A stretch of DNA of 64,000 nt from an uncultured Candidatus Saccharibacteria bacterium. Lineage in GTDB: Bacteria; Patescibacteriota; Minisyncoccia; Phycocordibacterales; CSBR16-119. Under the pieces are notes generated by a model. That model made no database searches, was not told where the DNA came from, and saw only the letters and a list, made by a program, of their open reading frames with translations. Every line of letters begins with the position of its first letter. Within the stretch, counting starts at the first letter, position 1. Made by a program: the position numbers and the translations under genes. Of this stretch, positions 4,338-47,370 are shown one piece after another. The stretch is from the NCBI GenBank assembly GCA_964355515.1, contig CAYHDV010000003.1, forward strand, positions 7,914 through 71,913, read 5' to 3'.

Positions 4338-5979
4338 AAGCGAAGGTTTCTTCTTCTCCGAACTCAGGAGAAAATGTTTCTGTCGTGTGGTGTGAGTCCA
4401 CGGCTTCTTCAAAAAAATTACCCAAGACATCACCTGTTCGAGATAATTCATCATCTTCGCGGTAAGCCCTCCCCATATCAAGAGATACATGAGCCCGGCC
4501 GGCTTCTTCATGATCCTCTCTATCAATCCCTATTCTTAAATTTGAACCCTCCATTAGATTGTTTTGCTTATGAGATTTTGTTGAATTGAAAAATGCTTTT
4601 TTAAGATTTTCATTTGGTACAACCGTATCAAAATTCAACTCAAAATTTATACGAGCCTGGGCATTTCTTTCTTTTCTTGGACGAACAAATGTCTTGAGCT
4701 CATATTCATAACCCTTTGTCTTGTCATCAACCCTCAACTTAAGACCATTTGCTGTTTTGTTTATAAGAGTAAAATCATAATTTTTTTGTTCTGGCATATC
4801 CGCTAAAATATCCAGCATTGTTGTCACACCCTCAATAGCATTCAAAACATCTTCTATATTTAATTTCGTTATATCTTCCATGGCAATACTGTTTGCCCCC
4901 ACCAAAATATCCTTGGCGCGAATCATTAGAGCTTCATAGAGTTCGTAGGGAAGCTTTTCTTTGGAGGGAATATCCAGGTCTGACCCCTCTATTGATTTTG
5001 AAAGTAATTCTTTAATTTTTTCTGCCGTATCAATAAGTTTTGAATATCCTTCAAATATTTTCTCTGACTCTTCCTGACGAAGCTTCGCACCAAGATCTAG
5101 GATTTTGCCCCCCATTTCTTGCCCACCTTGCTCCATAGACAAAAAGGTTCGAAGACCACTTCCGCCATACTTGTTTAAAAAAGATCTTAATTGACCCGCT
5201 TCTTCATTTGTTTTGTTCTTTATATAAGAAAAAAAGTTAAACAATTCAATTAAATTTGTCTGAGAAAAAGAAATCCCTAGATCTTTTTCTATTGGCGCCC
5301 TTAGGGCTTTGTTAGAAAAAAGTTTCTCAAACAAATCTATTTCTTTCTTATTAGCAGGATTCAAAACACCACTCATACTTAATTCATTATCAATTTCTTT
5401 AGAATTTTTAGAAAAAAAGAGTGTTTCATTAATATTTTTTATGTCACGCTTTGGTACACCAAGCCTTTTCATTCTATCTTTATATTCATTAAATTTATTT
5501 TTTTCTATCAACTTCAAGGAATCATCCAAAACAAGCGCAAAATGATTTTTATCAAAATCAATCTTTCTGACACTATTACCAAAGTTTTCCAAAAACAGCC
5601 CATTGTCTACGGTTGTTAGGTACTGAGAGAGGATATAGTTTGAGCCTTCATCTCCCCCCTGAGTATTGTTCAAATTCTCTATATATTGGCTATAAAAAGT
5701 TTTACTAGTGAGGTCACGGCCAATCATTTGGTCTCTATTTTCGCCAGAGCACGCACCTAGAGATGTGATATTTAGATAACTCTCTTCAAATTTATCAGGG
5801 TCTTTAAGGTCAATCTTAGGTAAAACTACATTCTCAATTCGCTTAGCCTCTCCTTCACCATAACCCCATGCGTACTGCTCACCATCACCCATCGATGGGT
5901 TTTTCCAAATTTCTATTCCCTCAATAACAACAGGACTTTCTTCTTGAGTATGATTGTAATTATTTGACCCTTCTTTCAT
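4285..5979 (-). CDS. Large hypothetical protein (564 aa), no recognised domains
   Basis: Uninterrupted ORF, convergent with the regulator and overlapping it by about 50 bp at the 3' ends. Confidence 0.6.
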   Translation of the reverse strand: MKEGSNNYNHTQEESPVVIEGIEIWKNPSMGDGEQYAWGYGEGEAKRIENVVLPKIDLKDPDKFEESYLNITSLGACSGENRDQMIGRDLTSKTFYSQYIENLNNTQGGDEGSNYILSQYLTTVDNGLFLENFGNSVRKIDFDKNHFALVLDDSLKLIEKNKFNEYKDRMKRLGVPKRDIKNINETLFFSKNSKEIDNELSMSGVLNPANKKEIDLFEKLFSNKALRAPIEKDLGISFSQTNLIELFNFFSYIKNKTNEEAGQLRSFLNKYGGSGLRTFLSMEQGGQEMGGKILDLGAKLRQEESEKIFEGYSKLIDTAEKIKELLSKSIEGSDLDIPSKEKLPYELYEALMIRAKDILVGANSIAMEDITKLNIEDVLNAIEGVTTMLDILADMPEQKNYDFTLINKTANGLKLRVDDKTKGYEYELKTFVRPRKERNAQARINFELNFDTVVPNENLKKAFFNSTKSHKQNNLMEGSNLRIGIDREDHEEAGRAHVSLDMGRAYREDDELSRTGDVLGNFFEEAVDSHHTTETFSPEFGEEETFASIAEMFRLYLNELQEKQ

Positions 5980-6178
5980 ACCCCAAATTATACACCACTA
6001 GCTCAAAATACAACCCTCTGTTATACTTGGCTTGTTATTAGATTAAATATACAGACCTGACCGTAGATACCGACATGACCCGTACCGACAATGAAAACTC
6101 TTTCTTCTTGAATTTTTTCACGACATACCTAAACCGACATAAATAAAACGTATCTAACCGAAGGGTCTTTGACCACAT

Positions 6179-7705
6179 ATGAATATAAAAATAATTATCT
6201 TTTTTGCTCTTACACTTTGTGTGGGAGGAGCTTTGGGATATGCACTACGATATCTCCTTGCAATAGGAAAGCGTGGCGGAGTGGAGCTAGAAATAAAGCA
6301 GATGATAGTAGATGCAAAAGAAGAGGCGTCTAGAATAACCGATGAATCAAAGAAAAAGGCAGAATTAAAAGAGCTAGAACTTAAAAAAGAAGAGAGAGAA
6401 CGAGAGTCAGAATTTAAAAAGACAGAAGACCGATTTATAAAAAAAGAAGAGCTTTTGGATGCAAGACAAGTAGAGCTAGACAAAGAATCAGAAGATATCA
6501 AAAGAAGACTAACAGACATAACAGAAAAACAAGAATTATTAGCTGATCTCGAAACAAAGAAACAAGATGAGCTTTCTAAGATTGCCCAAAAAACAAAGGA
6601 GGAGGCGCTCGAAGAAATATTTATTTCAATAGAAAGACAATACAGTGAAGACTTGCTTGCTCGAACTCAAAAGCTAGAACTTGCAAACAAAGAAAAACTC
6701 GACGCAAGAGCTCGTGATATTTTGACTATGTCTATTCAAAGAATGGCAAACGCCAATGTTTCAGACATCATGACAACAAACGTCACCCTATCTTCAGATG
6801 AAGAAAAAGGTAAGATTATCGGAAAAGAAGGTAGAAATATTCGTGCATTTGAAAGAGCTGCTGGAGTGGAGCTTATTGTAGACGACACGCCAGGGGTTGT
6901 GATTATTTCTGCGTTTGATCCTGTGCGACGACAAGTGGCACGTGTAGCACTTGAACACCTGATCGCCGATGGTAGAATCCAACCAGCAAAAATAGAAGAA
7001 GTGGTGAAAAAATCACAAGAAGAAGTAAACAACATAATCAAACAAAAAGGGGAAGAGGCTGTCTATGAACTTGGAATATATAACTTTGATCCACGAATTG
7101 TGGCTATTCTGGGGCGACTTTATTTCCGAACAAGCTACGGACAAAACGTCCTTCAGCACTCAGTAGAGATGGCACACATCGCAGCCATGATCGCAGAAGA
7201 GCTTGGGGCTGATGTAGCGGTAGCAAAGGCTGGAGCATTGGTGCATGACATAGGAAAGGCTCTTACACACGAAGTCCAGGGATCCCATGTTGATATTGGA
7301 ATAAGAATCCTTACAAAATTCGGAGCAGAAAAAGCAGTGATAGATGCAATGAAGAGTCATCATGATGAGTACCCATATGAAACCCTTGAAGCTCATATCG
7401 TCCAAACAGCAGATGCTATCTCAGGTGGAAGACCGGGGGCCAGACGTGATTCAGTAGAAAATTACTTGAAACGACTAGAGGAGCTAGAAAAAATAGCAAC
7501 AAGCCAAAAAGGTGTTGAGAAGGCTTATGCCCTATCAGCCGGGAGAGAAATCCGAGTGTTTGTAACACCAGAAAATATTTCTGATATTGAAGCCAAAGAA
7601 ACAGCAAGAGAAATTGCAAAAAACATTGAAGCAAATCTCAAATACCCAGGTGAAATACGAGTTGTGGTTATTCGAGAAAATAGAGTGATTGAGTTTGCAA
7701 GGTAG
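6179..7705 (+). CDS. rny: Ribonuclease Y
   Basis: N-terminal TM helix, coiled-coil, KH domain (KGKIIGKEGRNIRAFE) and HD domain (HSVEMAHIAAMIAEELG...HDIGKA). Confidence 0.9.
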   Translation: MNIKIIIFFALTLCVGGALGYALRYLLAIGKRGGVELEIKQMIVDAKEEASRITDESKKKAELKELELKKEERERESEFKKTEDRFIKKEELLDARQVELDKESEDIKRRLTDITEKQELLADLETKKQDELSKIAQKTKEEALEEIFISIERQYSEDLLARTQKLELANKEKLDARARDILTMSIQRMANANVSDIMTTNVTLSSDEEKGKIIGKEGRNIRAFERAAGVELIVDDTPGVVIISAFDPVRRQVARVALEHLIADGRIQPAKIEEVVKKSQEEVNNIIKQKGEEAVYELGIYNFDPRIVAILGRLYFRTSYGQNVLQHSVEMAHIAAMIAEELGADVAVAKAGALVHDIGKALTHEVQGSHVDIGIRILTKFGAEKAVIDAMKSHHDEYPYETLEAHIVQTADAISGGRPGARRDSVENYLKRLEELEKIATSQKGVEKAYALSAGREIRVFVTPENISDIEAKETAREIAKNIEANLKYPGEIRVVVIRENRVIEFAR

Positions 7706-9216: not shown

Positions 9217-9885
9217 TTACCACTCAATCCTCTTCTCATCTCTCCCCTCCAAATACTCATTACACGTAGAGAAATGTTTGCACCCCAGAAATCCTGTGTA
9301 TGCAGAAAATGGTGATGGGTGTGGAGCTTCGAGGACGAGGTGTTTACTTGTGTCTATAAGCGACTTTTTACTTCGAGCAAAATTCCCCCACAACATAAAA
9401 ACCACCCCTTCTCTCTCGTCAGAAATTGTTTTGATGACTGTATCTGTAAAATCTTCCCAGCCATGCCCTCTGTGTGATGCTGGCTGGCCAGAACTCACAG
9501 ACATAATAGCATTCAAGAGAAAAACCCCTTGTCTTCCCCATTCCTCCAAATTACCTTTCGTCACATCTTTTTTAATTCCCAAATCACTTTCAATTTCCTT
9601 ATAAATATTTTTAAGAGATGGTGGCGGAGTGACTCCATCTGGCACAGAAAAACAAAGTCCATGTGCCTGTCCCTCTCCATGATACGGGTCCTGACCAAGT
9701 ATCACCACTTTTACATTATCAAATGGTGTGAACTCAAAAGCCTTGAATAATTCCTCATGTTTTGGATACACAGTCTTTGTTTTGTATTCACTCTGGATAT
9801 ATTGAGAAAGATTTGCCCATGTCTCCGACTGGAAAAACTCCCCCAATCTCCCCTTCCAGCTTTTTTCTATACCAATCTCTTGCAT
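9217..9885 (-). CDS. ung: Uracil-DNA glycosylase (family 1)
   Basis: VVILGQDPYH, GVFLLN and HPSP motifs. 222 aa. Confidence 0.9.
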   Translation of the reverse strand: MQEIGIEKSWKGRLGEFFQSETWANLSQYIQSEYKTKTVYPKHEELFKAFEFTPFDNVKVVILGQDPYHGEGQAHGLCFSVPDGVTPPPSLKNIYKEIESDLGIKKDVTKGNLEEWGRQGVFLLNAIMSVSSGQPASHRGHGWEDFTDTVIKTISDEREGVVFMLWGNFARSKKSLIDTSKHLVLEAPHPSPFSAYTGFLGCKHFSTCNEYLEGRDEKRIEW

Positions 9886-10546: not shown

Positions 10547-10927
10547 CTAAATACTCAATATTTCAACTTTTGCAGTTTTTTCTTCTTGATTTATTAGGAC
10601 GGATAACAATTTTATCTCTGTTTCACATGAAACATCATTATTCATAATATACATCTCAACAGCCTTCAAAAATCTTTCAATTTTCTTTGGGTGCATGTTT
10701 TCCGCAGGATTATATGTTTCATGTGAAACATCAAGCTTTTTTATACTACTTTTTACTTCAAAAAAATAAATAATTTTAGATTTTTTGGCAATTATGTCTA
10801 TTTCTCCTTGTTTTAAGGTAAAATTTCTCTCAATAATAGAAAAACCTTTACTTTTTAAATACCTAACAGCCAAATTTTCGCCCAATTCCCCTATTTGTTG
10901 AGTTTTTGATGTAAATACTCTAATCAT
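10547..10927 (-). CDS. yraN: YraN/UPF0102-family endonuclease
   Basis: GELGENLAVRYLKSKGFSIIERNF...GEIDIIAKK...FFEVK, the classic YraN N-terminal and PD-(D/E)xK-like pattern. Confidence 0.8.
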   Translation of the reverse strand: MIRVFTSKTQQIGELGENLAVRYLKSKGFSIIERNFTLKQGEIDIIAKKSKIIYFFEVKSSIKKLDVSHETYNPAENMHPKKIERFLKAVEMYIMNNDVSCETEIKLLSVLINQEEKTAKVEILSI

Positions 10928-10933
10928 ACAAAT

Positions 10934-10957
10934 TACTTAGAGGTTCAACCTCTAAGT
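10934..10957. repeat. REP-like palindrome cttagaggttCaacctctaag, abutting the RAYT stop codon
   Basis: 8-bp stem cttagagg/cctctaag with a 5-nt loop. The same element sits at 11406, 11615 and 11751. Confidence 0.7.
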
Positions 10958-10958
10958 C

Positions 10959-11597
10959 TTAGTCCAGCAAAAGATTGTCTAGTTTTTTGTCTTCCTGTCG
11001 CCTTTCTGCAATGGCATGCACAAGACCAAGGCTATTTTCTCGATAGTCTTCACTATTTTGGTATTGTCCTAGAATAATATCTGGATGTACGAGCTTTTTA
11101 GATGTTTCATGTGAAACATATTCAGGCCAACTGGATACATATAAATCCCCTTCTCCAAGGCCATGAACCATATAATTCAGGTTTACATATGCTCCAAGGT
11201 AAAGTAAATATTCGTTTGTGGCAATATGTTTCACTTTATATCGTCCCTGAAAAAGTGACCCCGATCGTTCATATTTATCGTTAAAGTACATAGTATATCC
11301 TGTGCCAACCTTCTGCATAAACTTTTCGATACCACCTTCAACAAGTGGTGTTAAAATCATATGAAAATGGTTTGGGTTTAAACAAAAGGCTACAATCTCA
11401 ACCAACTTAGAGGTTGAACCTCTAAGTTTTCCATACTTCATCACATGCAATCCACCAAATGAGTCAATTGTATTTAATTTGTTTAAATGCCGAAGAAAAA
11501 CCTTCAAATCTTCTTTGTCTTGGAATACCGTTCGTTTATCTACACCGCGATTGTATACATGGTAGTATTCTCCAGGCATAAGTGATATACGTTTCAT
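10959..11597 (-). CDS. IS200-like Y1 (HUH) transposase / REP-associated tyrosine transposase (RAYT)
   Basis: YHVYNRG N-terminal block, HuH motif (NPNHFHMIL) and catalytic Tyr context (QGRYKVKHI). Flanked by REP-like palindromes. Confidence 0.8.
   Translation of the reverse strand: MKRISLMPGEYYHVYNRGVDKRTVFQDKEDLKVFLRHLNKLNTIDSFGGLHVMKYGKLRGSTSKLVEIVAFCLNPNHFHMILTPLVEGGIEKFMQKVGTGYTMYFNDKYERSGSLFQGRYKVKHIATNEYLLYLGAYVNLNYMVHGLGEGDLYVSSWPEYVSHETSKKLVHPDIILGQYQNSEDYRENSLGLVHAIAERRQEDKKLDNLLLD
11406..11426. repeat. REP-like palindrome inside the RAYT ORF (in-frame, encodes KLRGSTSKL)
   Basis: Exact copy cttagaggttgaacctctaag within the coding sequence, between the N-terminal block and the HuH motif. 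Confidence 0.7.
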
Positions 11598-11614
11598 ATG
11601 AAACAGTGTAGCAC

Positions 11615-11635
11615 TTAGAGGTTGAACCTCTAAGT
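11615..11635. repeat. REP-like palindrome 18 bp upstream of the RAYT start
   Basis: Exact copy. Confidence 0.7.
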
Positions 11636-11750
11636 AAAGTCTCTTAAACTTGTTAATAACTAAGGTTTTTATTTTATAAAAGACTTTCTCTAATTATAAA
11701 AGACTGTCCTTTATCCACGTTACACCCAAGCTTTTCCACAGAATAAAGGA

Positions 11751-11771
11751 CTTAGAGGTTGAACCTCTAAG
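11751..11771. repeat. REP-like palindrome
   Basis: Exact copy between the RAYT and tRNA-Arg. Confidence 0.7.
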
Positions 11772-11898
11772 TCATCACCGGGCTGATTGAGGCTCTACTT
11801 ACGCCATTCTTCTGGCAGTTCATCCTTATAGTATCCCTTGATACCAGTAAAAAACAAAGAAAACCCACTGCTTTTGCAGTAGGTTTTCTTTGTTTTTG

Positions 11899-11970
11899 TG
11901 CACCCGGAGGGATTCGAACCCCCAACGACGGTTCCGAAGACCGGTATGATATCCATTTCACTACGAGTGC
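11899..11970 (-). tRNA. tRNA-Arg (anticodon UCG)
   Basis: Minus-strand cloverleaf. Acceptor gcactcg/cgggtgc (one G-U), D gtga/tcat, anticodon loop cttcgga, T-arm ggggg-ttcgaat-ccctc. Terminator hairpin downstream. Confidence 0.7.
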
Positions 11971-12141
11971 ATTTTCTTTTTGATTTGCTTGATATCTCAA
12001 GAATAATCCTTATTCTTACATAGTTTCACATGAAACAGTTATGTACCAACAAAACAATACGAGAATTGTACGATATATCCCCAAATAAAGCAATATTTTT
12101 CTATAAAAGCTGATATAATAAAAGAGTTAATAATTAAATAT

Positions 12142-13716
12142 GTGAATATGTACCAAAGGGGCACTATCAAAGAGTTCGAATCTCTATATCCACACAATAA
12201 ATCAATGCAAACAATGCATTTCCATATACCAGAAGAAGTGATAAAGGCTACAAAAACCCTAAAAGATAGGGGCTTTGAGGCATATCTTGTGGGTGGCTGT
12301 GTGAGAGATCTATTAACAGAGAAAAAACCAAAGGACTGGGATATTGCAACCAATGCAAAACCCGAGGAAATACAAGCTTTGTTCGTAAAAACAGTCTATG
12401 AAAATAACTTCGGGACAGTGGCTGTTGTAAATGAAGAGCTGGGGCTGGATGATCCACTGCGGGTTATAGAGATAACCCCATATAGAACAGAGAGCAACTA
12501 CAGCAACAACCGCCATCCAGACTCGGTGTCTTTTAGTGAAAATCTAGAAGAGGATCTAAAGAGACGAGACTTCACCATGAACGCAATAGCCGTTGAAATT
12601 AAAGGGTTTATAAAAGACATTGATAAAGGACATGAGGTGATTATAAACGACATGTATGGTGGTATAAAGGACATTCAGAGACAAGTCATAAAAGCGGTAG
12701 GGAATGCGGATGAAAGATTCAAGGAAGATGCACTCCGAATTATGCGGGCTATCCGGTTTTCTTCACAGCTTGGTTTCATGGCAGATTCAGAAGTTATGGA
12801 AGCTATGGGGAAAAACAAAGAACTCCTAGCCAATATCTCCCACGAAAGAATCCGGGATGAGCTAATCAAAATAATAAATTCAGATGACCCAATGATAGCG
12901 TTCGTCACTATGCAAAAACTAGGAATCCTACCCTATGTCATACCTGAACTTGAAGAAACAATAAAAATAGAGCAAGGAGGCGAACATATCTATGATGTGT
13001 GGGAACACTCACTTCGAGCTCTCCAAAATGGGGCAGACAAGAAATATGCGTTTCATGTGAGACTCGCGTCGCTCCTTCACGATATAGGGAAGCCAAGGAC
13101 AAGAAGGCCAGATCCACAGGGAAAAGGTTGGACTTTCTACAACCATGAAGTGGTGGGGGCAAAAATGGCAAAAAAGATACTTGAGAGGCTCAACTTTTCA
13201 CGTGAAACAATAAGCACTATTGTTTCACTCGTACGGTGGCACATGTTTTTCTCTGATCCTGATCAAATCACCCTCTCTGCTGTAAGACGACTTATCCGAA
13301 ATGTGGGACCTGAGCTGGTATGGGACTTGATGGATGTCCGGCGTTGTGACCGAATAGGTATGGGACGACCAAAAGAATCTCCATACAGACTAAGGAAATT
13401 TGAATCAATGATAGAAGAAGTAAGTCGAGACCCCGTGTCTGTAAAGCAACTTAAACTCAATGGAGATATCATGATTGCAGAGCTTGGTATGAAACCCGGA
13501 AGGGAAATCGGCTGGATACTGCATGCGCTGCTAGAAGAGGTCCTGGATGACCCAAACAAAAACGAGCTTGAATATCAAAAAGAGCGAGCACTCGAGCTCT
13601 CCAAACTACCGCAAGATGCACTAAGAGAACTAGGCGAAGCAGGGAAGGAAGCCACAGAAGAAGCCGAAGAAGCCGAGCTGAAAGAAATTCGTAAGAAGCA
13701 TAAGGTGGGGAAATAG
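12142..13716 (+). CDS. cca: CCA-adding tRNA nucleotidyltransferase with HD domain and E/K-rich C-terminal tail
   Basis: GGCVRDLLTEKKPKDWDIATNAKPEE head domain. HD motif LLHDIGK. 524 aa. Confidence 0.85.
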   Translation: MNMYQRGTIKEFESLYPHNKSMQTMHFHIPEEVIKATKTLKDRGFEAYLVGGCVRDLLTEKKPKDWDIATNAKPEEIQALFVKTVYENNFGTVAVVNEELGLDDPLRVIEITPYRTESNYSNNRHPDSVSFSENLEEDLKRRDFTMNAIAVEIKGFIKDIDKGHEVIINDMYGGIKDIQRQVIKAVGNADERFKEDALRIMRAIRFSSQLGFMADSEVMEAMGKNKELLANISHERIRDELIKIINSDDPMIAFVTMQKLGILPYVIPELEETIKIEQGGEHIYDVWEHSLRALQNGADKKYAFHVRLASLLHDIGKPRTRRPDPQGKGWTFYNHEVVGAKMAKKILERLNFSRETISTIVSLVRWHMFFSDPDQITLSAVRRLIRNVGPELVWDLMDVRRCDRIGMGRPKESPYRLRKFESMIEEVSRDPVSVKQLKLNGDIMIAELGMKPGREIGWILHALLEEVLDDPNKNELEYQKERALELSKLPQDALRELGEAGKEATEEAEEAELKEIRKKHKVGK

Positions 13717-13763: not shown

Positions 13764-14552
13764 TTAATATATTCCCGTCTCCTTACTCCATTTATCATAG
13801 AGAAGTTTGTTGTTCTCATAGTAGCCCTGAATAAATGATCCTGAGTATTTAATAATATCAATTTCATTATATCCTTTTGACATAGTAGTTATTTGATCTG
13901 AAGATTGAGTTACAACGTCTTTTGGAGATAGCCAATCCTTGGTGTCAGCTTTTGGTCGAACAGACAGGGCTGATTTTGTTATTGTTGATGTAATATTCAC
14001 AGAAAGACCAGAAAACCAATCGGGGAATCTTCCTACATATGATCTCACATATTCTCGTAGAATAAACTTGGCTTCACAGAACGGTTCAATAACAAAAGGT
14101 GTATATCTATCAGAAACCCCTGCAATAATAACAACCTTTAACTTAATATTATTTTCTTCAATATTGAACACTGATATTTTTGAGACCAAATACCTCAGTA
14201 GATACTTAAACGAATTAACATTTGTATCGTAGATATCCTCATCGATAGTTTTCATTGGCTTAATATCTGGGTAACCACGCGGATTAAATTTATCTGAACC
14301 AATAGTGTGCAAATAGACAATCTGATTATATTCTTTCAGGTTTATTCTGGAAAAAACAATTTCTATGTTTTTTATACTTCTTAGATCACACGTAACACTT
14401 TCAAACAGATTGGAATCGACCCCTTCAACTCTTTTATTTCTAATTACTCCAATAGTGTTTAGACCTTTTTCGATGAAGGCTTTTACATACTCTGTTCCTA
14501 TTTCTCCAGCGGCACCAGCTATGATAACTAAAGTTTTTTTATTTTTGTTCAT
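13764..14552 (-). CDS. NAD(P)-binding Rossmann-fold protein (atypical SDR/epimerase-like)
   Basis: N-terminal glycine-rich loop LVIIAGAAGEIGTEY. No canonical YxxxK seen. Confidence 0.45.
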   Translation of the reverse strand: MNKNKKTLVIIAGAAGEIGTEYVKAFIEKGLNTIGVIRNKRVEGVDSNLFESVTCDLRSIKNIEIVFSRINLKEYNQIVYLHTIGSDKFNPRGYPDIKPMKTIDEDIYDTNVNSFKYLLRYLVSKISVFNIEENNIKLKVVIIAGVSDRYTPFVIEPFCEAKFILREYVRSYVGRFPDWFSGLSVNITSTITKSALSVRPKADTKDWLSPKDVVTQSSDQITTMSKGYNEIDIIKYSGSFIQGYYENNKLLYDKWSKETGIY

Positions 14553-15115
14553 ATTTATATATTCAGTTTAATAATGTATGGTATTCATTTCACATTTTCA
14601 AAGCACTTCAGTAAAGAAATGATCTGAAAAATAGAGGAGAGTGGGCAAAGCCCCTCTCCTGGTTAATATTATTTATCCGCTAAGCCTTGCATAGAGACGC
14701 CTTCTACCGGAAGAGTCCAATAAAATCTTTGCCTCGTACGCAAGAATTCTTCCACCTATTCCGAGACGCATAAATCCTACATCAAGCATGCAGTCGCTCT
14801 TACGCTCAAACTCAACACAGAATTATCAAGTTCAAAACCAGAATCCTCAATAATTAAGTGGAAACCCTGACAAAACTCATCACTTTCAGTGGTGGCACTC
14901 TCTAAGGGTGAGATTGTTAAACTTTCTGAGAATCGGACAGTTTTGATAGCTTGCTCACTATTGTCTCCATAATTATTACCTATGTAGATTTTCATATCTT
15001 TGTTTTTTTAAGTTCATATTTGTTTAACAACATAATACACTAAAGGTCAAATACTTTCATCAAACAAGGCTTTATGGTATACTTTTTAAACTAAAGGTTT
15101 AATTATCTATATGAA

Positions 15116-15946
15116 ATGAACCCATTTGATCACACAATTGAGTCAAAAATTATTCAAAAACTCCATAAGGGGGCTCTTTCTAGTGCTCGACTAGTTCAAG
15201 AGATCAAGGAAGAGCAAGGGGTAACAAAACAAGCTGTATATAAGGAGCTACGAAAATTGCGAAAAAGAGAAATGGTGGTGGCTCATGGGAAAATACTCAG
15301 CCTATCCGTTCTTTGGCTACAAAAAATGTCTTCATTTTTTTTAGAAACTCACGATCTGTATTCAGGAGAAAGTACCTCTGAGCCATATCTTCAGATGGAG
15401 GATGGAGATAGCTTGGTGTATAGATTCTCTAACCCAGACACCATGGACTCCTTTTGGGGTCATGCGGTACTTATATTGTCTGGGAAAATGAGTGAGGGGG
15501 ATTACGCGTATCTATACAACCCGCATGAGTGGTTCCTGGCAGCAAGACCTGAGTCAGAGTTAGAGATCTTTAGACTTATACATGAAAGTAAGAAAAACCT
15601 TGTTATATATGTAGCAGGGGAAACGGATCTTGATAAGAAGCTCGGGAACCTACTCATTCAGGAGTCTCAGCAGTACTTTGCGGGTGGAATATACTTATTC
15701 GAGAAGGAAAATTACTATATAAACATTTTTAATGATTTTATTATAGAGGTTTGGATAGACCCATCAACTGCAGGGAAAATAGAGTCTTTTTTCCAACAGG
15801 AAAAAGAAGTCACAGCCTACGGGATGGATACACTTCAGCATGTTATTTCACAGACAGGAAAGAATAAATTTAAAATATCAAAAAACAAAAAAAGAGCTGA
15901 TCAACTAAAAAGAAAAATAGGAAAATATTTCCAAATAAAAAAATAA
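15116..15946 (+). CDS. Winged-helix domain protein (putative regulator)
   Basis: N-terminal HTH-like segment (LSSARLVQEIKEEQGVTKQAVYKELRKLRKREMV). Same architecture as the 3513..4337 product. Confidence 0.5.
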   Translation: MNPFDHTIESKIIQKLHKGALSSARLVQEIKEEQGVTKQAVYKELRKLRKREMVVAHGKILSLSVLWLQKMSSFFLETHDLYSGESTSEPYLQMEDGDSLVYRFSNPDTMDSFWGHAVLILSGKMSEGDYAYLYNPHEWFLAARPESELEIFRLIHESKKNLVIYVAGETDLDKKLGNLLIQESQQYFAGGIYLFEKENYYINIFNDFIIEVWIDPSTAGKIESFFQQEKEVTAYGMDTLQHVISQTGKNKFKISKNKKRADQLKRKIGKYFQIKK

Positions 15947-16299
15947 AAAAGCCCACTAACGTGTGAGCTTTTGGTGGGTTTAGGGTAAACCCTTGTTGTT
16001 GGGGGGCCTCGGCCGAGGCCCCCCTTACACCTGCAGATAAATCCTGCAAGTGGAATTATCAAATGATGAAACTGGAACAACTTATCCTGCGAAGTTTTTT
16101 GTACTAATTCTGTTTTGCAAGAATCATTCAAAATGGCTTCAAATAAGAAAGTGCGATCTTTGAAAGAAGTTTCTATGGCGACCCGATCAATCGGCCGTAC
16201 TTCTTCAAACAAGAGAATCTCACCATGGTGATTGATTTCTCGTGCCAGCATGCAGGAAATAAAGCCTTCGCATCCCATACCGATTAAGATTATATCCAT
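15901..16299 (-). CDS. Hypothetical ORF (132 aa), doubtful extent
   Basis: N-terminal 70 aa look protein-like. The 3' part reads through a 24-bp all-GC palindrome (ggggggcctcggccgaggcccccc) and overlaps the convergent gene, so the true gene may be shorter or absent. Confidence 0.25.
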   Translation of the reverse strand: MDIILIGMGCEGFISCMLAREINHHGEILLFEEVRPIDRVAIETSFKDRTFLFEAILNDSCKTELVQKTSQDKLFQFHHLIIPLAGFICRCKGGLGRGPPTTRVYPKPTKSSHVSGLFYFFIWKYFPIFLFS

Positions 16300-16812
16300 A
16301 TTGAGAACAATGTTTCAACAGAGAATACGCCCTTTGCAAAATAAAGTCAAGAATCCAAAAACTGTTTCTAGTTTAGGAATATTTACTCATCCAGCTAACC
16401 GTAACTTGCTTGATCTCTTGGAAGACATCCTCTGTTATTTCCACTGGTAATTGACGAATCAAGACCCAGCAAATCAAAACAAAAACTATTATTCCAGTAA
16501 TCACTTTTGGAAATATTCGTCCTCTTACTGTGCTGCTCTTATGCAGATGAGGGGGAATTACGTTTGACATGGCCCTATCGTATTTAGTTGTTTTTATTTA
16601 CTATAGAAAAAAATGGGAAAAATGCAATGGGGGGGTTGTTTAGAGAATGATGAGGCACGCCGAAGGCTCACCCCCTGATGGGATTTTGATAACTATCAAG
16701 GTCCGATCTCTCCTTAAGCCTGAGGATTAGGTGGGAAAATTCTGGATTGCTTCGTCGCGAACTCCTCGCAAAGACGGGCATTGTAACCTTTCTTCATTCT
16801 CCTTACTTATTT

Positions 16813-20150: not shown

Positions 20151-21083
20151 TTATTTTTTATTTCCATGAAACTTTTTATGAATTTCTTTTAGGTGTTTGT
20201 TTGTAACGTGGGTATAGATTTGAGTGGTAGAAATATCTGCGTGTCCAAGCATAACCTGCACAGACCTAATATCAGCTCCATTTGAAAGCAAGTCAGTGGC
20301 GAAACAGTGTCGAATCACATGGGGGGTAACCTTCTTTGTGATGCCGGCGATGGTGGCGTACTTTCTCACAATCCTTCCAACAGATCTTCTATCTAAACCT
20401 TTTTCATCATCTACTTTGTTTTTGTTTTTTGAGACATTTACAAATAGTGCTTCCGAGAAGTCTTTTCGTTGTGTGAAATATTTTTTTAGGGAATCTTTGG
20501 CTTCTGCAGATAGAAATACTACTCGGAGTTTGCCACCCTTTCCTCTAATCGAAAATTCATCTCGAGAAAAATCAATGTCTCTAAAGAGGGAACAGAGCTC
20601 TGACACACGGAGGCCAGTAGAAAAAAGCATCTCTAGTATCGCCTTGTCTCTATATCTGATTTCTAAATTCTTTTCTTTTTCGGGAGCCTCTAGGAGCCTC
20701 TTTAGTTCCTGATCTGAAATAACATCAATTTGTCTTTGGGGGACTTTTCCTAGTTCAATCTGTTCTGAAGAAAGAGTTTTTTCTCCTCGTCTTGTCATGT
20801 ATTTCAAAAAAGACCGCAAGGCAATCAGGTGATAGTTCTGAGTACTCTTTGAGAGTGTTTCTCCTGTTCTTCTGTTGTGGCTGGCTCCGGCTGATTGTCT
20901 GTGAAGCCAAATCCGAAACTCTCTCACCATGTCATCTGTTATTTGCTGTGGCTTGGTGGCCCCTGTTTGTTTCAAGAAGACATTTAGATAGTGGTCGTAG
21001 TTTCTAATAGTATTCAAAGCTCGACCTTTTTCGATTTCTAGATACTCAAGAAACTGTCTTTTTAATTTTTCTAAATCATTCAT
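20151..21083 (-). CDS. Site-specific tyrosine recombinase, XerC/XerD family
   Basis: N-terminal SAM-like core-binding domain. Catalytic R..HxxR..Y region (LRVSEL, HVIRHCFATDLL, TQIYTHV). Confidence 0.85.
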   Translation of the reverse strand: MNDLEKLKRQFLEYLEIEKGRALNTIRNYDHYLNVFLKQTGATKPQQITDDMVREFRIWLHRQSAGASHNRRTGETLSKSTQNYHLIALRSFLKYMTRRGEKTLSSEQIELGKVPQRQIDVISDQELKRLLEAPEKEKNLEIRYRDKAILEMLFSTGLRVSELCSLFRDIDFSRDEFSIRGKGGKLRVVFLSAEAKDSLKKYFTQRKDFSEALFVNVSKNKNKVDDEKGLDRRSVGRIVRKYATIAGITKKVTPHVIRHCFATDLLSNGADIRSVQVMLGHADISTTQIYTHVTNKHLKEIHKKFHGNKK

Positions 21084-41001: not shown

Positions 41002-41141
41002 GTTATCTTGAGATCTTGTATTATCTCTTCATAAAGAATGTGAAATTTTAAGCACAAAAATCAGCCAGAACACTCGGCTGATTTTTGCGCTTATCCCAGA
41101 AGAAAGCTTTGTATAAAACTTTTTCGCGTTATAATAAACCC

Positions 41142-41543
41142 ATGAGATTTAAAGTTCCGCAATTTATAGATATTGAAGACAAAATCTTTGGTCCGCTTAC
41201 ATTTAAGCAGTTCATGTATATGGGAGGAGGGCTGGGTCTCACTTATGTTACATACAGATTTCTTCCACTCTATGGAGCGCTCCCTATCATGGCAGCCATC
41301 CTTGCTCTTTCTTTTTCTCTGACATTTGTCGAGATAAACAAAAAGCCATTCATCTATATTCTAGAGGCCTACATCAGATATATCATTGGCTCAAAAATGT
41401 ATCTTTGGAAAAAGGTTTCCAAGAGAGAGGCGACAGGAGCAGTAAGTAAAAGTGTTCAAAAAGAAAAAGTGGAAACACCAAAACTGACAGAGGGTAGGCT
41501 GAAGTCTCTTTCTCTGGGGCTTAATATTATTGAAGAAAACTAA
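41142..41543 (+). CDS. PrgI/VirB3-like small membrane protein
   Basis: MRFKVPQFIDIEDKIFGPLTFKQFMYMGGG, then two TM helices. Immediately upstream of VirB4, as in Gram-positive T4SS. Start set at the ATG at 41142; the tracked ORF starts at an upstream TTG. Confidence 0.55.
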   Translation: MRFKVPQFIDIEDKIFGPLTFKQFMYMGGGLGLTYVTYRFLPLYGALPIMAAILALSFSLTFVEINKKPFIYILEAYIRYIIGSKMYLWKKVSKREATGAVSKSVQKEKVETPKLTEGRLKSLSLGLNIIEEN

Positions 41544-41545
41544 TC

Positions 41546-42172
41546 ATGGCGACAAAACCTACACAAGAATTTATACCGATCCAAGAAATCCGAAATGGAA
41601 TTCTTGTCTTGCGCGATGGTTCACTCCGAGCAATCCTTATGACCTCTGCAGTAAACTTGGCTCTAAAGTCTTCTGACGAACAACAGGGGACAGTGTATCT
41701 TTTCCAAAGTTTTCTAAACTCTCTTGATTTCCCAATTGAAATTGTGGCTCAATCAAGAAAGCTTGATATCAAGCCCTATCTAGAAGCGCTCAATGTGCGA
41801 GAAACTGTAATAGAAGAGCCTCTTTTGAAACTCCAAATCAGAGAGTATGTAAGCTTCGTCAAAAACTTCACCGATCAGATAAACGTTATGAAGAAGCATT
41901 TTTTTGTTGTTATTCCATTTACACCAAATACTGTTTCATCAAATTCAAGTCTTATTTCTGGGTTATTTGGTGGAAAGAAAGCTAAAACAATTTCAGCAGA
42001 AGACTTCGGTGAATACATGTCTCAACTGGAACAAAGAATTTCTCTTGTTCAGTCTGGACTTTCTCGTGTGGGAGTGAAGAGTTCTCTTTTAAACAACGAG
42101 GAGTCTATCGAGCTTTTTTATACAATATTTAATATGGGAGATGGAAGTAGTTCTCTATCAATGGATAATTAA
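41546..42172 (+). CDS. VirB4/TrbE-family N-terminal domain (split gene, part 1)
   Basis: EFIPIQEIRNGILVLRDGSLRAILMTSAVNLALKSSDEQQ...FLNSLDFPIEIVAQSRKLDIKPYLE matches the conserved VirB4 N-terminus. Confidence 0.6.
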   Translation: MATKPTQEFIPIQEIRNGILVLRDGSLRAILMTSAVNLALKSSDEQQGTVYLFQSFLNSLDFPIEIVAQSRKLDIKPYLEALNVRETVIEEPLLKLQIREYVSFVKNFTDQINVMKKHFFVVIPFTPNTVSSNSSLISGLFGGKKAKTISAEDFGEYMSQLEQRISLVQSGLSRVGVKSSLLNNEESIELFYTIFNMGDGSSSLSMDN

Positions 42173-42177
42173 TACCT

Positions 42178-44238
42178 ATGAGCCTTTTCGACAAACTAAC
42201 AAAAAAAGATATCAAACCAACAGGTCCACAAGCGCTCCCTGTTCTTCCTGAGGAAATATACAAGACTGCAAACCTAGAGTTGCAAGATATCCTAGCTCCC
42301 GGAGCTTTGAAAATCCAACCCAAGACCCTCAACCTCGGAGAGGAGCTTGCTCGAACATATTTTGTGGTTTCCTATCCAAGATACCTGACAGACAATTGGT
42401 TTACACCTATCATCAACCTAGACAAGATTTTCGATGTTTCTATTCATATTCATCCAGTAGATACATCCACAATCCTTAAAAAGTTTGAAAAAAAGGTAGC
42501 CGAAGTACAAAGTCAAATCGAGGCTCGTTCAGAAAAAGGTGTCGTGCGAGACCCAATTCTCGACACCGCATATCATGACTTGGAAGACCTGCGGGACAAT
42601 CTCCAGCAGGCACAGGAGAAAATATTTGAAGTAGGGCTATACATCACAATATACGCAAAGACAGAAAAAGAGCTTTCTGAAATAGAAACAAAGATTAAGT
42701 CTATATTGGAATCAAAGTTGGTTTACCTCAAGCCAGCACTCTTCCAACAAAAAGAAGGTTTCTTGAGTACCATGCCAATTGGCGATGACCAGCTAGCTGT
42801 CCACCAAAAGATGAATTCTGCACCACTGTCCTCTCTATTTCCTTTTGTTTCTTTTGACCTTACAGATGAGAAGGGGATCCTCTATGGGATAAACAGACAA
42901 AACTCAAGTTTGGTTATTTTTGATAGATTCTCTATGCCAAACTACAACTCAATCACCTTTGCCACCTCAGGAGCCGGGAAATCTTTTGCAACAAAACTTG
43001 AGGTATTGCGTTCCATGATGTTTGATACAAACGTAATTGTTATCGACCCAGAGCGAGAGTATGAGTCTCTTGCAGAAGCAGTTGGTGGACGATTCTTCAA
43101 CATCTCTCTTTCTTCAGAGCACCATATCAATCCATTTGATCTACCAAAACCAAGTGAAGATGAAACACCAGCGGATGTTCTTCGGGGGACAACCATTAGT
43201 CTCGTGGGACTATTTCGAATCATGCTTCAGGGTCTAACTCCAGAAGAAGATGCTATCGTGGACCAGGCTATCACCCAAACATACGCCCTAAAGGATATCA
43301 CCGCCGAGGGAAGCTTTGAGGGGAAAGAACCTCCACTTCTTTCTGATTTTGAAATGGTCTTGCAAGGGATGGATGGTACAGATTCTGTTCTACAAAAACT
43401 TTCCAAATTTACAAGTGGGTCTTGGTCTACATTTATGAATAAGCCCACAAACGTGGATATTGATAAGAAATTCATTGTATTTTCTGTACGAGACATGGAA
43501 GACGACCTCAAGCCTGTTGCCATGTATCTTGTAACCCAATTCATCTGGACAGCTATTCGAAAAAATATCCAAAAAAGAATTCTAGTGGTGGATGAGGCTT
43601 GGTGGATGATGAAATCAGAAGATACCGCAAGCTTCCTATATAGCATGGCAAAGCGAGGAAGAAAGTATTACCTAGGGCTTGCCACAATCACCCAAGACGT
43701 GGGGGACTTCATGCGGTCAAAATATGGAGTGCCTATTGTTACAAACTCTTCTATTCAGCTTCTTTTGAAGCAATCACCAAGCACTATTGATGTTCTCCAA
43801 AAAACATTCAACCTGACCGATGAAGAAAAATACCTTCTTCTTGAGGCAAACGTGGGTGAAGGGATATTCTTTGCCGGCCTAAAACACGTTGCAATTAAAA
43901 TCATTGCTTCATATACCGAAGAGCAGATTATCACCTCAGATCCTGCCCAGATTCTGGCAATCCAAAGAGCAAAAATAGAAAAGAGAGAAGTTGCTGCTGT
44001 GGTAGAAGAACAAAACAAAGAAAAAATACAAACTGTCATGAAAGAACAAGCTCAAATCCAAAAAGATAAAGAGCTTGAAGAAAATTTGCGTATCAAAGAA
44101 GAAGTAACTGAGGCCAAAAAAGAAGAGGTTTCTCTCCCCGATAGCACAGCTCCAAAAGAAACTAATTCTCTCCAAAGTTTCTCTGACAATCTAGATAGTG
44201 AAATATCAACACTTGAGAACGAACTTGGGGGATTCTAG
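42178..44238 (+). CDS. VirB4/TrbE/CagE-family T4SS ATPase (part 2, ATPase domain)
   Basis: YPRYL motif, Walker A SGAGKSF, DPEREY, Walker B ILVVDEAWWM. 686 aa. Different frame from part 1, with a 5-bp gap. Confidence 0.85.
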   Translation: MSLFDKLTKKDIKPTGPQALPVLPEEIYKTANLELQDILAPGALKIQPKTLNLGEELARTYFVVSYPRYLTDNWFTPIINLDKIFDVSIHIHPVDTSTILKKFEKKVAEVQSQIEARSEKGVVRDPILDTAYHDLEDLRDNLQQAQEKIFEVGLYITIYAKTEKELSEIETKIKSILESKLVYLKPALFQQKEGFLSTMPIGDDQLAVHQKMNSAPLSSLFPFVSFDLTDEKGILYGINRQNSSLVIFDRFSMPNYNSITFATSGAGKSFATKLEVLRSMMFDTNVIVIDPEREYESLAEAVGGRFFNISLSSEHHINPFDLPKPSEDETPADVLRGTTISLVGLFRIMLQGLTPEEDAIVDQAITQTYALKDITAEGSFEGKEPPLLSDFEMVLQGMDGTDSVLQKLSKFTSGSWSTFMNKPTNVDIDKKFIVFSVRDMEDDLKPVAMYLVTQFIWTAIRKNIQKRILVVDEAWWMMKSEDTASFLYSMAKRGRKYYLGLATITQDVGDFMRSKYGVPIVTNSSIQLLLKQSPSTIDVLQKTFNLTDEEKYLLLEANVGEGIFFAGLKHVAIKIIASYTEEQIITSDPAQILAIQRAKIEKREVAAVVEEQNKEKIQTVMKEQAQIQKDKELEENLRIKEEVTEAKKEEVSLPDSTAPKETNSLQSFSDNLDSEISTLENELGGF

Positions 44239-44275
44239 TGTTTTGTCTCTTGTGAATCCATAGTATGATATACAC

Positions 44276-44662
44276 ATGGATACAGATGATCAAAAAATAT
44301 CTGAAGAATTAGAAAGCTTGGAAAAGGCATTCGAGGAAGAGACTGCTTCCTCTCCCATTGCTGAAATAAAAGTGAATACACCCCAAGCTCAAACAGTTGG
44401 AGGTTTTTCACACACAATAACCTCCCTAAAAGAAACCGATTCCAAAATAGCTGGGAAAATAGAAACCTTAAAGAATCTAGCAAAAAGTGAGTTGGATAAA
44501 CTAAAAGAATTAAAAAATAGTATCGCAAAAAAAATAGCAGATATAAAAGAGCTTGCTGAAACAAGAGAAAAAATCAAAAAAGAGATCGAGAAAATATCGG
44601 GATTAGAATCTGAAGTAAATTCAATAACAGAAGAAGCAACTCATGAACTTGGCAATCTATAA
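44276..44662 (+). CDS. Coiled-coil hypothetical protein (128 aa)
   Basis: E/K-rich heptad-like sequence. Confidence 0.45.
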   Translation: MDTDDQKISEELESLEKAFEEETASSPIAEIKVNTPQAQTVGGFSHTITSLKETDSKIAGKIETLKNLAKSELDKLKELKNSIAKKIADIKELAETREKIKKEIEKISGLESEVNSITEEATHELGNL

Positions 44663-45650
44663 AAAAATATACATTGTTTTTTCTTTCATCTTTGTTTTTG
44701 GTGTGGCTTGTTTTCTTTTCATCTCTACCGCCATGGCTCAGACAGAAAGCTTTTCTTTTGAGGTCTACCCCAAGAATCCAGCACCTCAGGAAGTGGTAAA
44801 AGCTTCTTTGTCGAGTTTTTCTGTTGACTTAGACAAAGCTCACATCACATGGACAGTGGATGGTAATACTATTCTATCCGGAATGGGTGAGAAATCGGCT
44901 AGCATAAAAACCAAAAACCTGGGCGAGGTAACTGTTGTAAAGGCTGTTGCGGTGTTCGCTCAAGGCCAGAGAATAGAACAAACCTTAATCATCCAACCTG
45001 CGTATCTGGATATTCTCTGGGAATCAACAGACTCTTATACTCCTCCTTTTTACAAAGGAAAAGCTCTTCCTTCGCAGGAGAGCACCCTTAAGGTTGTCGC
45101 TATTCCAGAAATCAAAAACTACGCAGGTCAAAAATACAAGCCAGAACACCTCATCTACACATGGAAAAAGGGTATAGAAACTCAAACAAATAACTCCGGC
45201 TTTAATAAGCAATATTTCTCTTTTAAACATAGCGTCTTTGACAAAGAGCAAAGAGTCAACATAGAAGTGGCAAGCCAAGATGGGTATAGTGGTGGAGAGG
45301 GATCAGCATTGATTACTTTTTCTAATCCTCGTGTGGCTGTATATCAAGAAACCTCTCAAAAAGGTATAAACTTTGCCAGCGAGCTTTCTCAAAATTCATT
45401 ATCAAGCAGGGGTAAGACAAGTCTTGTAGCTATCCCATACTTTTTTTCAACAAACTCTCATGGGGAGAGCGGTCTTTCCTATCAGTGGACAGTAAATGGA
45501 AATACAGCCACCCCACAAAATACAAAGAATAAAATTACCTTAGAGAAAACGGGGGAGGATGCTGGTCTTGCAGAAGTAGAGGTATCCATTAAAAGTGTTT
45601 CTAAACTTTTTCAAGATGGGCTTAAAAAATTTAATATAGAATTGCAATAA
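44643..45650 (+). CDS. Secreted/membrane-anchored hypothetical protein (335 aa)
   Basis: N-terminal TM or signal segment. Confidence 0.5.
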   Translation: MNLAIYKKIYIVFSFIFVFGVACFLFISTAMAQTESFSFEVYPKNPAPQEVVKASLSSFSVDLDKAHITWTVDGNTILSGMGEKSASIKTKNLGEVTVVKAVAVFAQGQRIEQTLIIQPAYLDILWESTDSYTPPFYKGKALPSQESTLKVVAIPEIKNYAGQKYKPEHLIYTWKKGIETQTNNSGFNKQYFSFKHSVFDKEQRVNIEVASQDGYSGGEGSALITFSNPRVAVYQETSQKGINFASELSQNSLSSRGKTSLVAIPYFFSTNSHGESGLSYQWTVNGNTATPQNTKNKITLEKTGEDAGLAEVEVSIKSVSKLFQDGLKKFNIELQ

Positions 45651-45651
45651 T

Positions 45652-47370
45652 ATGAAAAAGATTTTCTCATACCTAATAATAACCCTGGTGATGTTTTTCC
45701 AAGTTTCTATTGCTGTCTTCGCCCAGCCTGTACCTACCAGCTCTGAACCTTCTCTTACTATCGAGGCTGGATTATCTTTTGAGCAAACATCTGTTGGACC
45801 ATCAGCAAATCCAACTTTAAATATCCAAGTTTTTGGAGATAACATGGAGCAGGTTTATCAATCTTATGTTTTAGAAGTTTTTAAAAACAATGAAACTGAG
45901 CCACATGCCACAGGAATAAATCTATATACAATAGTTGATGGATCTTTTGAGGGGGAGGTAATACCTTTGGCGACGCAAGCAGATGCAGCTCAATATACTA
46001 TTACGGCAAAAACAGGAACAACTGGCGAGGATCTGCTAATAGAAACTATAATCTTTCAAATGGTTAGAGAGTCGTCTCCAGCACTCTCTATCCCTTCAGT
46101 CACCATCACCCCAGAAACAGGATTAACTACCGGGGTGTCTTACACAGTGAAGGGCTCTGGCCTATTTGGAAATGCCACCTACACCATCCCCGTACAAATA
46201 CGAGCAGGAAGTGAACTTGGAGAGGTTGTCTATTCCGATACATATGAGGTGACCACTGGTTCTGGGGGAGCGTTCAATCTCACACCCAGCTCTTGGAACC
46301 CAGCAACTTTTAATGCTAACCAGGGGGCTGAGGGAGGATCGCTTGAAGGAATACAAGGTGCGGGAACAAACGAGGTGGCGACAGATACTTTTGTGGTACA
46401 AGCATTTCTCCACACAACAGCAAATGCTGTAAAAACAAGTAAGTCTTTTCAAACAAATGGTGTTACAAACGCTATCAATGTTGAAAATGGCGTGGTGACA
46501 AATACAGATGACTGTATCGATGGGCAGGGGACATACTGTCTTCTAGAGCCTATTGGAACGGGGAACAATCTATTAGACCGAGTAAATATCAATACGTCTT
46601 TTGGAAGCTATTTAAATGGACTTTTCCAAATCGGGCTTGCTCTTATTGGGATTCTGGGAGTTCTCCTTATTGTTGTAGGAGGTATAACCTACATGACAAC
46701 AGATGCTATTGGTAAAATGACAGAGGGAAAAGCTCAAATTAAAAAAGCCCTTCTGGGTATTTTCCTTGCTCTTATTTCATGGCTACTTTTGCAAACCATA
46801 GACCCAGGGTTGTTGAAATTTGAAATTGGAGTATATGATGCGCCAACACCTGGGTACCTGGGGGAGGCGACACCAACCGGAACAAATGTTTGCGGGTCAA
46901 GAACACTAAACGGGCAAACAGTCACACAAGGAATGCCTTGGCCTAGTGATCAAACACAGCGGAGCTTACTTGGGAATGCAAATATAAGTATTGCTTCAAC
47001 AGGTGGAAACAATGCTTGCACAACAGCTGGTCAGACAAGTTGCACATCAGTCTATTTCTCAGGGGCAGCATCAAACGTACCCCAAAAAGTGATAGAAATT
47101 AAAACTCAGTGCGAAGAAGAAACTGGAAAAACCTGCCCAGTTGTAATAACAGGGGGAAGCGAATGTTGGGCACACCAAAGCCATGGGCCATCTCTAAAAA
47201 GAGTAGATCTCCGCAATAATACAACTACCGCTGATTTCAATGCTTGGGTGTATAGCAAATTAAATGGAGCAAGCTCGGGCATCATCCCAGGTCTAGGTAA
47301 ATTTACAAACGAAGCCGATGGGGCAACATCAAATACAACCGCCTCTCACTGGCATGTTGAGTTAGATTAG
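45652..47370 (+). CDS. Secreted protein (572 aa) with an internal pilin-like (VirB2/TrbC-like) double-TM hairpin
   Basis: Signal peptide. The segment GLALIGILGVLLIVVGGITYMTTDAIGKMTEGKAQIKKALLGIFLALISWLLLQTI reads as TM, short charged loop, TM. Confidence 0.5.
   Translation: MKKIFSYLIITLVMFFQVSIAVFAQPVPTSSEPSLTIEAGLSFEQTSVGPSANPTLNIQVFGDNMEQVYQSYVLEVFKNNETEPHATGINLYTIVDGSFEGEVIPLATQADAAQYTITAKTGTTGEDLLIETIIFQMVRESSPALSIPSVTITPETGLTTGVSYTVKGSGLFGNATYTIPVQIRAGSELGEVVYSDTYEVTTGSGGAFNLTPSSWNPATFNANQGAEGGSLEGIQGAGTNEVATDTFVVQAFLHTTANAVKTSKSFQTNGVTNAINVENGVVTNTDDCIDGQGTYCLLEPIGTGNNLLDRVNINTSFGSYLNGLFQIGLALIGILGVLLIVVGGITYMTTDAIGKMTEGKAQIKKALLGIFLALISWLLLQTIDPGLLKFEIGVYDAPTPGYLGEATPTGTNVCGSRTLNGQTVTQGMPWPSDQTQRSLLGNANISIASTGGNNACTTAGQTSCTSVYFSGAASNVPQKVIEIKTQCEEETGKTCPVVITGGSECWAHQSHGPSLKRVDLRNNTTTADFNAWVYSKLNGASSGIIPGLGKFTNEADGATSNTTASHWHVELD

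Follow-up and report, generated by a model that had tools for sequence, protein, structure and literature searches.

A 64,000-nucleotide stretch of contig CAYHDV010000003.1, from an uncultivated bacterium (hereafter ‘the window’, by which we mean the whole of the sequence analysed), poses a straightforward question: why does one short palindromic motif recur through three adjacent genes—yraN, a Y1 (IS200-like/RAYT-like) transposase gene and cca—and what might read it? The initial annotation had listed five full copies of a 14-mer, GTTTCAYRTGAAAC, at a density it judged to be far above chance. Both statements hold; a pattern search of the window returns five exact matches, at 10620, 10716, 11104, 11591 and 12023 (four of the coordinates originally assigned being one base too high), whilst 100 dinucleotide-preserving shuffles return none (mean 0.00, maximum 0). 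In our reading, the copies very probably represent an origin-proximal cluster of parS sites, bound by ParB; a reading founded on their sequence match, their clustering, their closeness to dnaA, their long-term upkeep at one locus and the selection acting on them at the level of DNA.

Looking first at the motif itself, four of the five copies are one and the same 14-mer in its two orientations (CACATG and CATGTG being mutual reverse complements), with the fifth having a TA centre. Taken together with its flanks, each copy grows into a 16-bp palindrome; three read TGTTTCA(CA/TG)TGAAACA, one AGTTTCACATGAAACA and one CGTTTCATATGAAACA. The set as a whole reads TGTTTCA(YR)TGAAACA, one to three mismatches away from TGTTNCACGTGAAACA. 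Searching the window with TGTTTCACGTGAAACA at up to three mismatches yields six sites, all inside 10619–13209, where 0.39 would be expected; at up to two mismatches there are five, all within 2.6 kb, against a shuffle mean of 0.08. Both of the 6-bp arms (GTTTCA/TGAAAC) are exact in five of the six sites, and neither the remaining 61 kb of the window nor the 17.6 kb that precede it contain a further copy. The form of the motif suited to scanning with up to two mismatches is TGTTNCAYRTGAAACA.

Working along the window, site 1 (TGTTTCACATGAAACA, 10619..10634, centre CA) and site 2 (TGTTTCATGTGAAACA, 10715..10730) are each one mismatch from the consensus and lie inside yraN (UPF0102; 10547..10927, minus strand; Pfam PF02021, E = 1.5e-18), where they are read on the minus strand as V-S-C-E-T and V-S-H-E-T, respectively. 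Site 3 (also TGTTTCATGTGAAACA, 11103..11118, one mismatch, reading V-S-H-E-T) is found within the open reading frame (ORF) of the transposase (10959..11597, minus strand; Pfam PF01797), and site 4 (CGTTTCATATGAAACA, 11590..11605, three mismatches, centre TA) overlaps the start codon of the same gene (ATG at 11595–11597, minus strand). Site 5 (AGTTTCACATGAAACA, 12022..12037, two mismatches) is intergenic, located between the divergent tRNA-Arg (TCG; 11898..11970, minus strand) and cca genes. Site 6 (CTTTTCACGTGAAACA, 13194..13209, two mismatches) has the canonical CACGTG centre and sits inside cca (12148..13716, plus strand; 522 amino acids; CCA-adding enzyme/poly(A) polymerase family, with an HD domain), the gene that anchors the cluster, where it is read as F-S-R-E-T.

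These placements agree with those first described, and the accompanying suggestion that a recognition motif is embedded in-frame within coding DNA is likewise supported. The two near-copies that had been noted in cca fare differently: that reported at 13196 corresponds to site 6, starting at 13194, and is conserved in relatives, whereas that reported at 13049 (CGTTTCATGTGAGACT, 13048..13063) carries four mismatches to the 16-mer in direct reading, has no counterpart at that position of cca in relatives, and is probably a non-functional or decaying site.

The 16-mer TGTTNCACGTGAAACA is the published consensus for chromosomal parS, which is bound by ParB/Spo0J and forms clusters within the origin (‘ori’) domain in many phyla—8 of 10 sites in B. 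subtilis, 10 of 10 in C. glutamicum and 22 of 22 in M. xanthus—with the parS of M. smegmatis reading GTTTCACGTGAAAC (PMC7022226). The same paper cites ChIP-seq, performed in E. coli, of 17 heterologous ParB proteins. To this we can add the company kept by the exact 16-mer of site 1, TGTTTCACATGAAACA, in other organisms. A scan of representative genomes finds it at at least 120 loci, each taken as an 8-kb stretch. Of the 120 loci listed, 34 also carry a ParB-like ORF (phmmer E-values from 1e-21 to 1e-89, with a Spo0J sequence serving only as the query) and 29 of those 34 a Soj/ParA-like ORF as well. By our own estimate, made with no computed control, the chance of meeting parB in 8 kb of a genome of a few Mb is well below 1%. 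Among the matches listed, most multi-copy clusters adjoin parB; in the Lachnospiraceae locus L086, for example, five copies are packed into 700 bp immediately ahead of the gene, and loci L062, L053, L021 and L123 resemble it, with the same CA/TG-centred 16-mer in clusters beside parB. Its position beside parB in 34 of the 120 listed loci thus marks the CA/TG-centred form as a naturally occurring form of parS in Clostridia, Bifidobacteria, Actinobacteria and Alphaproteobacteria; no genome of the candidate phyla radiation (CPR) is found among the at least 120 loci listed.

With respect to the origin, the dnaA (50106–51758) and dnaN (52017–53120) genes, both on the plus strand and taken here as its proxy, lie 38 kb from the cluster of sites. 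The cumulative GC-skew has its minimum at ~11–24 kb and gene orientation switches at ~24 kb; the region of the switch contains rpsO and a small ORF, with no long non-coding origin. Nine matches to the DnaA box (TTWTNCACA) occur in the window, where 8.7 are expected, and they form no cluster, either beside dnaA or elsewhere. It may be that divergent DnaA boxes serve the origin of this genome, or that the origin is not next to dnaA.

How far does the cluster extend beyond this one contig? A metagenome scan with the CCA protein provided 80 loci from relatives (CCA 53–60% identical; 823 kb in total), in which the gene order yraN - cca - xerD is kept. Together these contain 81 sites within two mismatches of TGTTTCACGTGAAACA, 80 of which fall in a core zone running from −2.5 to +2 kb relative to the start of cca. 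If the degenerate N of the published consensus is allowed for, the core zone (286 kb) has 120 sites, as compared to 7 in the flanks (537 kb) and 4 when all loci are shuffled. At least one site is present in 33 of the 40 relative loci that are fully covered (median 2, maximum 6). A motif-free test, ranking 8-mers by their enrichment in core over flanks, returns TCACGTGA (51x), CACGTGAA (25x), GTGAAACA, CGTGAAAC and ACGTGAAA at its head. Closer to the window, the sister loci carry 3–7 sites in the same 2.7 kb and none elsewhere in 20.6 kb, whilst all five copies persist in the strain variants, including those whose neighbouring genes are different.

Individual sites have their own histories within this picture. 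Site 1 is present in the sister loci L214 and L212, but the 80 relatives at greater distance have no site in the matching column of the alignment; it is therefore a younger site. Site 3 has an orthologue in L214, L215 and L212, and TA-centred sites matching site 4 occur at the same place in L212 and L213, with L214 having one in intergenic DNA at a similar position. A strain-variable cassette sits directly downstream of cca (13764–16300 in the window; 5038–7184 and 820–2966 in the strain loci L002 and L004), composed here of two ORFs without a Pfam match (262 and 276 amino acids) and in the other strains of a radical-SAM-like gene plus a TrmB-family regulator; the parS-like sites beside it are unchanged among strains.

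This conservation bears directly on the idea, going back to the initial annotation, that the motif is a target of the neighbouring Y1 (RAYT-like) transposase, or part of its repetitive extragenic palindromic (REP) system, and has spread locally. The transposase gene does hold one copy and has another at its start, and REP palindromes are found in the same ~1 kb. Yet the same cluster is maintained at the same locus in the 80 relatives, where the 10-kb flanks contain neither a Y1 transposase nor the REP palindrome; the motif is also present at sister loci that have no REP of the window type, the remainder of the window and the sequence upstream hold no extra copies, and—reasoning from the sequence—a 6-bp stem with a 2-nucleotide loop cannot form a hairpin of the REP/RAYT type. 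We consider such an origin highly improbable. The cluster is long maintained at the yraN-tRNA-cca locus, independent of the transposase. The motif was also considered as an RNA or DNA hairpin in its own right, a candidate rejected from the sequence for its short loop.

The true REP-like element of the region is a separate family, confined to 10936–11771: a 21-bp palindrome, CTTAGAGGTTSAACCTCTAAG, with copies at 10936–10956, 11406–11426, 11614–11634 and 11751–11771, that both flanks and interrupts the transposase gene. The copy at 11406 is in-frame inside that gene and encodes LRGSTSK, with close homologs keeping ‘RGSTS’ at this point. Variants that retain the core and carry compensating changes in the outer stem are seen at 86–106 of the window (TTCAGAGGTTCAACCTCTGAA) and at 9957–9977 of L214 (GTGAGAGGTTCAACCTCTCAC), which suggests a structured hairpin, read by the transposase.

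As to the transposase, it belongs to a family of more than 2300 members, the named examples of which come from Parcubacteria-type (Patescibacteria) genomes; on the strength of those names, the host lineage would belong to the Parcubacteria/Paceibacteria group of the Patescibacteria. Its closest homologs (74% and 66% identical) occupy the same slot between cca and yraN, and in the sister lineages (L214, L215, L212 and a 509-kb JGI contig of sample 3300072015) the gene, at 66–78% identity, is the single resident of that slot; JBGCVH010555141.1 is likewise a sister contig. Judged by this placement it is a fixed resident of the locus in one subclade, and looks domesticated or very stable rather than an active mobile element. 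The peptide E[YF]VSHET, which spans site 3, is found only in the eight closest homologs (two of which, P0007 and P0008, are confirmed to lie in the cca-yraN slot) and is absent from the wider family, suggesting that site 3 arose in place.

Since four of the six sites lie in coding sequence, three of them sharing the frame V-S-H/C-E-T, one might ask whether the repeats simply follow from coding constraint (a recurring V-S-R/H-E-T peptide) or from oligonucleotide composition, and serve no purpose as DNA. The positions occupied across lineages speak to this. From one lineage to another the sites fall on many different codons of yraN and cca, and there has therefore been turnover of individual sites, with some positions being recurrent: yraN residues ~66–72 (13 lineages; the position of site 2), cca ~97 (6 lineages) and cca ~390 (11 lineages, including the site at 13194 of the window); the position of site 6 is occupied, at up to two mismatches, in 10 relatives. 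Of the three possible reading frames the sites are read in two, as V-S-R/H-E-T and as F-H-V-K; TGA would occur in the third.

A codon test at cca ~390, across the 25 lineages that encode F-S-R-E-T there, is more direct. Phenylalanine is encoded by TTT in 25 of 25 (background 63%), serine by TCA in 24 of 25 (21%), arginine by CGT in 21 of 25 (22%) and glutamate by GAA in 25 of 25 (53%). Variation is free at the K/R codon that comes before, at the I/V codon that comes after and at the third position of the threonine codon. Where serine is replaced—by proline in cca, and by proline or threonine in yraN—the codons are all of the form NCA, corresponding to the degenerate N of TGTTNCACGTGAAACA. Codons are thus fixed to the choice compatible with parS whilst neighbouring synonymous positions vary, a pattern that rules out a purely protein-level or compositional origin. 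Furthermore, shuffles give just 0–0.4 sites, the wider YraN, RAYT and CCA families do not conserve the peptide, intergenic copies exist, and the flanks are nearly free of sites; a coding artefact is, to our minds, next to impossible. The sites are under purifying selection as DNA, not as protein.

A target for restriction-modification or for site-specific recombination, or a spreading mobile motif, had also been put forward. The motif is palindromic, and the gene for a tyrosine recombinase is syntenic with cca in most relatives; in the window an XerC/D-like recombinase (20151–21083) is encoded 7 kb away. Sites of the dif type are single-copy, ~28 bp in length and found at the terminus, unlike the multiple sites near dnaA seen here, and the targets of restriction-modification systems are dispersed or avoided rather than packed into one 4.5-kb zone conserved across lineages. 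The specificity of the sites for a single locus, the selection on their DNA and their match to parS all tell against these suggestions, for which the probability is, in our view, negligible.

If the sites are parS, their centres require comment. The central CG of the consensus is replaced in five of the six window sites, by CA/TG in four and TA in one. A search with the arms alone (GTTTCA NN TGAAAC) finds CA or TA centres in the window and at sister loci, with CG found too in more distant relatives, whose centre is mostly the canonical CACGTG; across the sister lineages the arms are fixed and the centre varies among CG, CA/TG and TA. The genome of the window has a GC content of 38.7% and an observed-to-expected CpG ratio of 0.59, as compared to averages of 48% and 1.14 for the relatives. 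TA is also low in the window genome, at 0.70. Causes of such CpG depletion might include cytosine methylation at CpG or AT-biased mutation. A change from CG to TG on one strand would generate CATGTG/CACATG, and a change on both strands CATATG; the simplest reading would be that of ordinary CpG decay, tolerated by the protein that reads the site.

Saying this, several observations weigh against the identification of the cluster as origin-proximal parS. Most of the sites are without the central CG, and their tolerance by a ParB of this lineage is an assumption of ours. The description ‘origin-proximal’ draws on dnaA-dnaN and on skew, with no accompanying cluster of DnaA boxes. The cognate reader, in this organism as in its lineage, would be a putative ParB: Pfam annotation finds no ParB or ParA gene in the window, and there is none on the whole of the 82,595-bp contig that contains it (ENA ERZ4201064 NODE_191; record coordinates being those of the window plus 17,593). 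A 27-sequence ParB profile, at E ≤ 10, has no match in 1.04 Mb covering the window, strain variants and the loci of 80+ relatives, and a validated Soj probe has no match in the loci searched; the ParB gene, if the lineage has one, is thus more than 10 kb from the cluster in every lineage examined. Finally, the literature searched yielded nothing on ParB/parS in Patescibacteria, Parcubacteria or Saccharibacteria. ParB/Spo0J-family proteins are, by way of background, commonly annotated in metagenome-assembled genomes of Parcubacteria.

The same facts lend some weight to the idea that the sites are read by a different DNA-binding protein (a lineage-specific helix-turn-helix factor, a Noc-like ParB paralog or a nucleoid organiser), perhaps in a lineage without ParB: no gene for ParB or ParA is found on the 82.6-kb contig, nor up to 10 kb either side of the cluster in the 80 relatives, and ParB in Patescibacteria is undocumented in the literature searched. 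The sites themselves nevertheless argue for parS. The consensus in the relatives is that of canonical parS, down to the degenerate N position, and the exact variant is found beside parB, mostly with parA, in 34 of 120 listed loci that are unrelated. Variable positions within coding sequence are unlike promoter operators. A parS site need not adjoin parB; of the 10 sites of B. subtilis, only 8 are in the ori domain (PMC7022226).

The comparison with Noc is instructive, as the Noc-binding site (NBS) of Firmicutes is a palindrome of similar length and is read by a member of the ParB family. Its consensus is reportedly ATTTCCCGGGAAAT, in which positions 2 and 7 of the 16-mer are A and C, respectively, whereas the sites here have G at position 2 in five of six (T in site 6) and A at position 7 in all six; the positions said to separate parS from the Noc site are therefore of the parS type. 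Unlike NBS, which are dispersed away from the terminus, the sites are clustered, probably near the origin. Taking both sides together, we rate a reader other than ParB as decidedly improbable.

A further possibility keeps the centromere and changes its setting: the centromere of the clade would long have stayed at a single housekeeping locus, apart from any parAB operon, and would have lost its central CpG in an AT-rich sublineage. We regard this as unlikely. Were it true, it would imply either a ParB with relaxed or shifted specificity at the centre of the palindrome, or a ParB-less lineage in which another protein reads canonical parS.

Returning to the preferred reading—a cluster of ParB-binding parS sites—we can sketch how it would work by analogy with the established ParABS model, from which we infer that ParB binds, that it spreads in a CTP-dependent manner and that ParA and SMC take part. 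Each 16-bp palindrome would be recognised by ParB dimers through their helix-turn-helix domains, with TGTTTCAYRTGAAACA as the predicted binding sequence for the putative ParB of this lineage. ParB would then bind CTP, close into a clamp and slide onto neighbouring DNA, so that several adjacent sites would, we propose, build one large partition complex. ParA, if present, would move this complex, which would also load SMC condensin, thereby separating sister origins.

Set beside known systems, the cluster most readily recalls the Spo0J/parS type of B. subtilis: a 16-bp palindrome with identical arms and one degenerate position (N), in clustered, probably origin-proximal copies of which many lie in coding sequence, the cluster being conserved across related genomes. 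It departs from that type in the loss of the central CG from five of six sites, in being fixed at yraN-tRNA-cca, where none of 80+ lineages has parB or parA closer than 10 kb, and in its uncultivated, Parcubacteria-type host, for which parS is not described in the literature searched. In having several sites within a few kb it is similar to the tight multi-copy parS arrays of C. glutamicum, M. xanthus, the Lachnospiraceae locus L086 and the Eubacteriales locus L062; arrays beside parB elsewhere act together as one centromere, whereas the array here does not abut parB. The resemblance to REP/RAYT systems extends to short palindromes near a Y1 transposase gene; unlike these, the 14-mer is independent both of the transposase and of the true 21-bp REP, with four of six sites in coding sequence.

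For orientation, Pfam annotation identifies several further genes in the window: clpP (191–775), RNase Y (6179–7705) and UDG (9217–9885) ahead of the cluster, and yidC (48684–49454) and ruvB-yebC-ruvC (57.8–60 kb) well beyond it. A type IV secretion-like cluster occupies 41–48.6 kb; more precisely, a type IV secretion/conjugation-like set at 41085–48634, comprising a PrgI-like protein, a TraG/VirB4-like ATPase, a type IV secretion pilin-like protein and several ORFs without a Pfam match, lies directly beside yidC-rnpA-dnaA. Several independent assemblies (NODE_191 and a Logan contig; loci L210/L220) break ~1–3 kb past the 3′ end of the window, after an ORF of 674 amino acids without a Pfam match, in the region from 62130 to beyond 64000; the break probably reflects a repeat or a strain-variable region. 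A second contig, ERZ4201063 NODE_58 (130,676 bp), starts at about position 8048 of NODE_191 and should reach ~57 kb beyond the 3′ end of the window.

What, then, does the locus tell us? The parS kind of site is already well known, and no new kind of system is revealed; the features particular to this lineage are the position of the cluster away from parB, its CpG-free centre, and coding-embedded sites that turn over and leave a codon footprint. The cluster provides a natural example of a DNA-binding site constraining the choice of codon and amino acid, and its CG, CA/TG and TA centres are concrete sequences with which to probe the tolerance of ParB at the centre of the palindrome. As a probable marker of the origin-proximal domain, it may also serve as a landmark for orienting and checking CPR assemblies. 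Above all, the cluster is probably the centromere of an uncultivated CPR bacterium with a reduced genome, kept by a whole clade at the same housekeeping locus and built from sites that have been repeatedly lost and regained within protein-coding genes.

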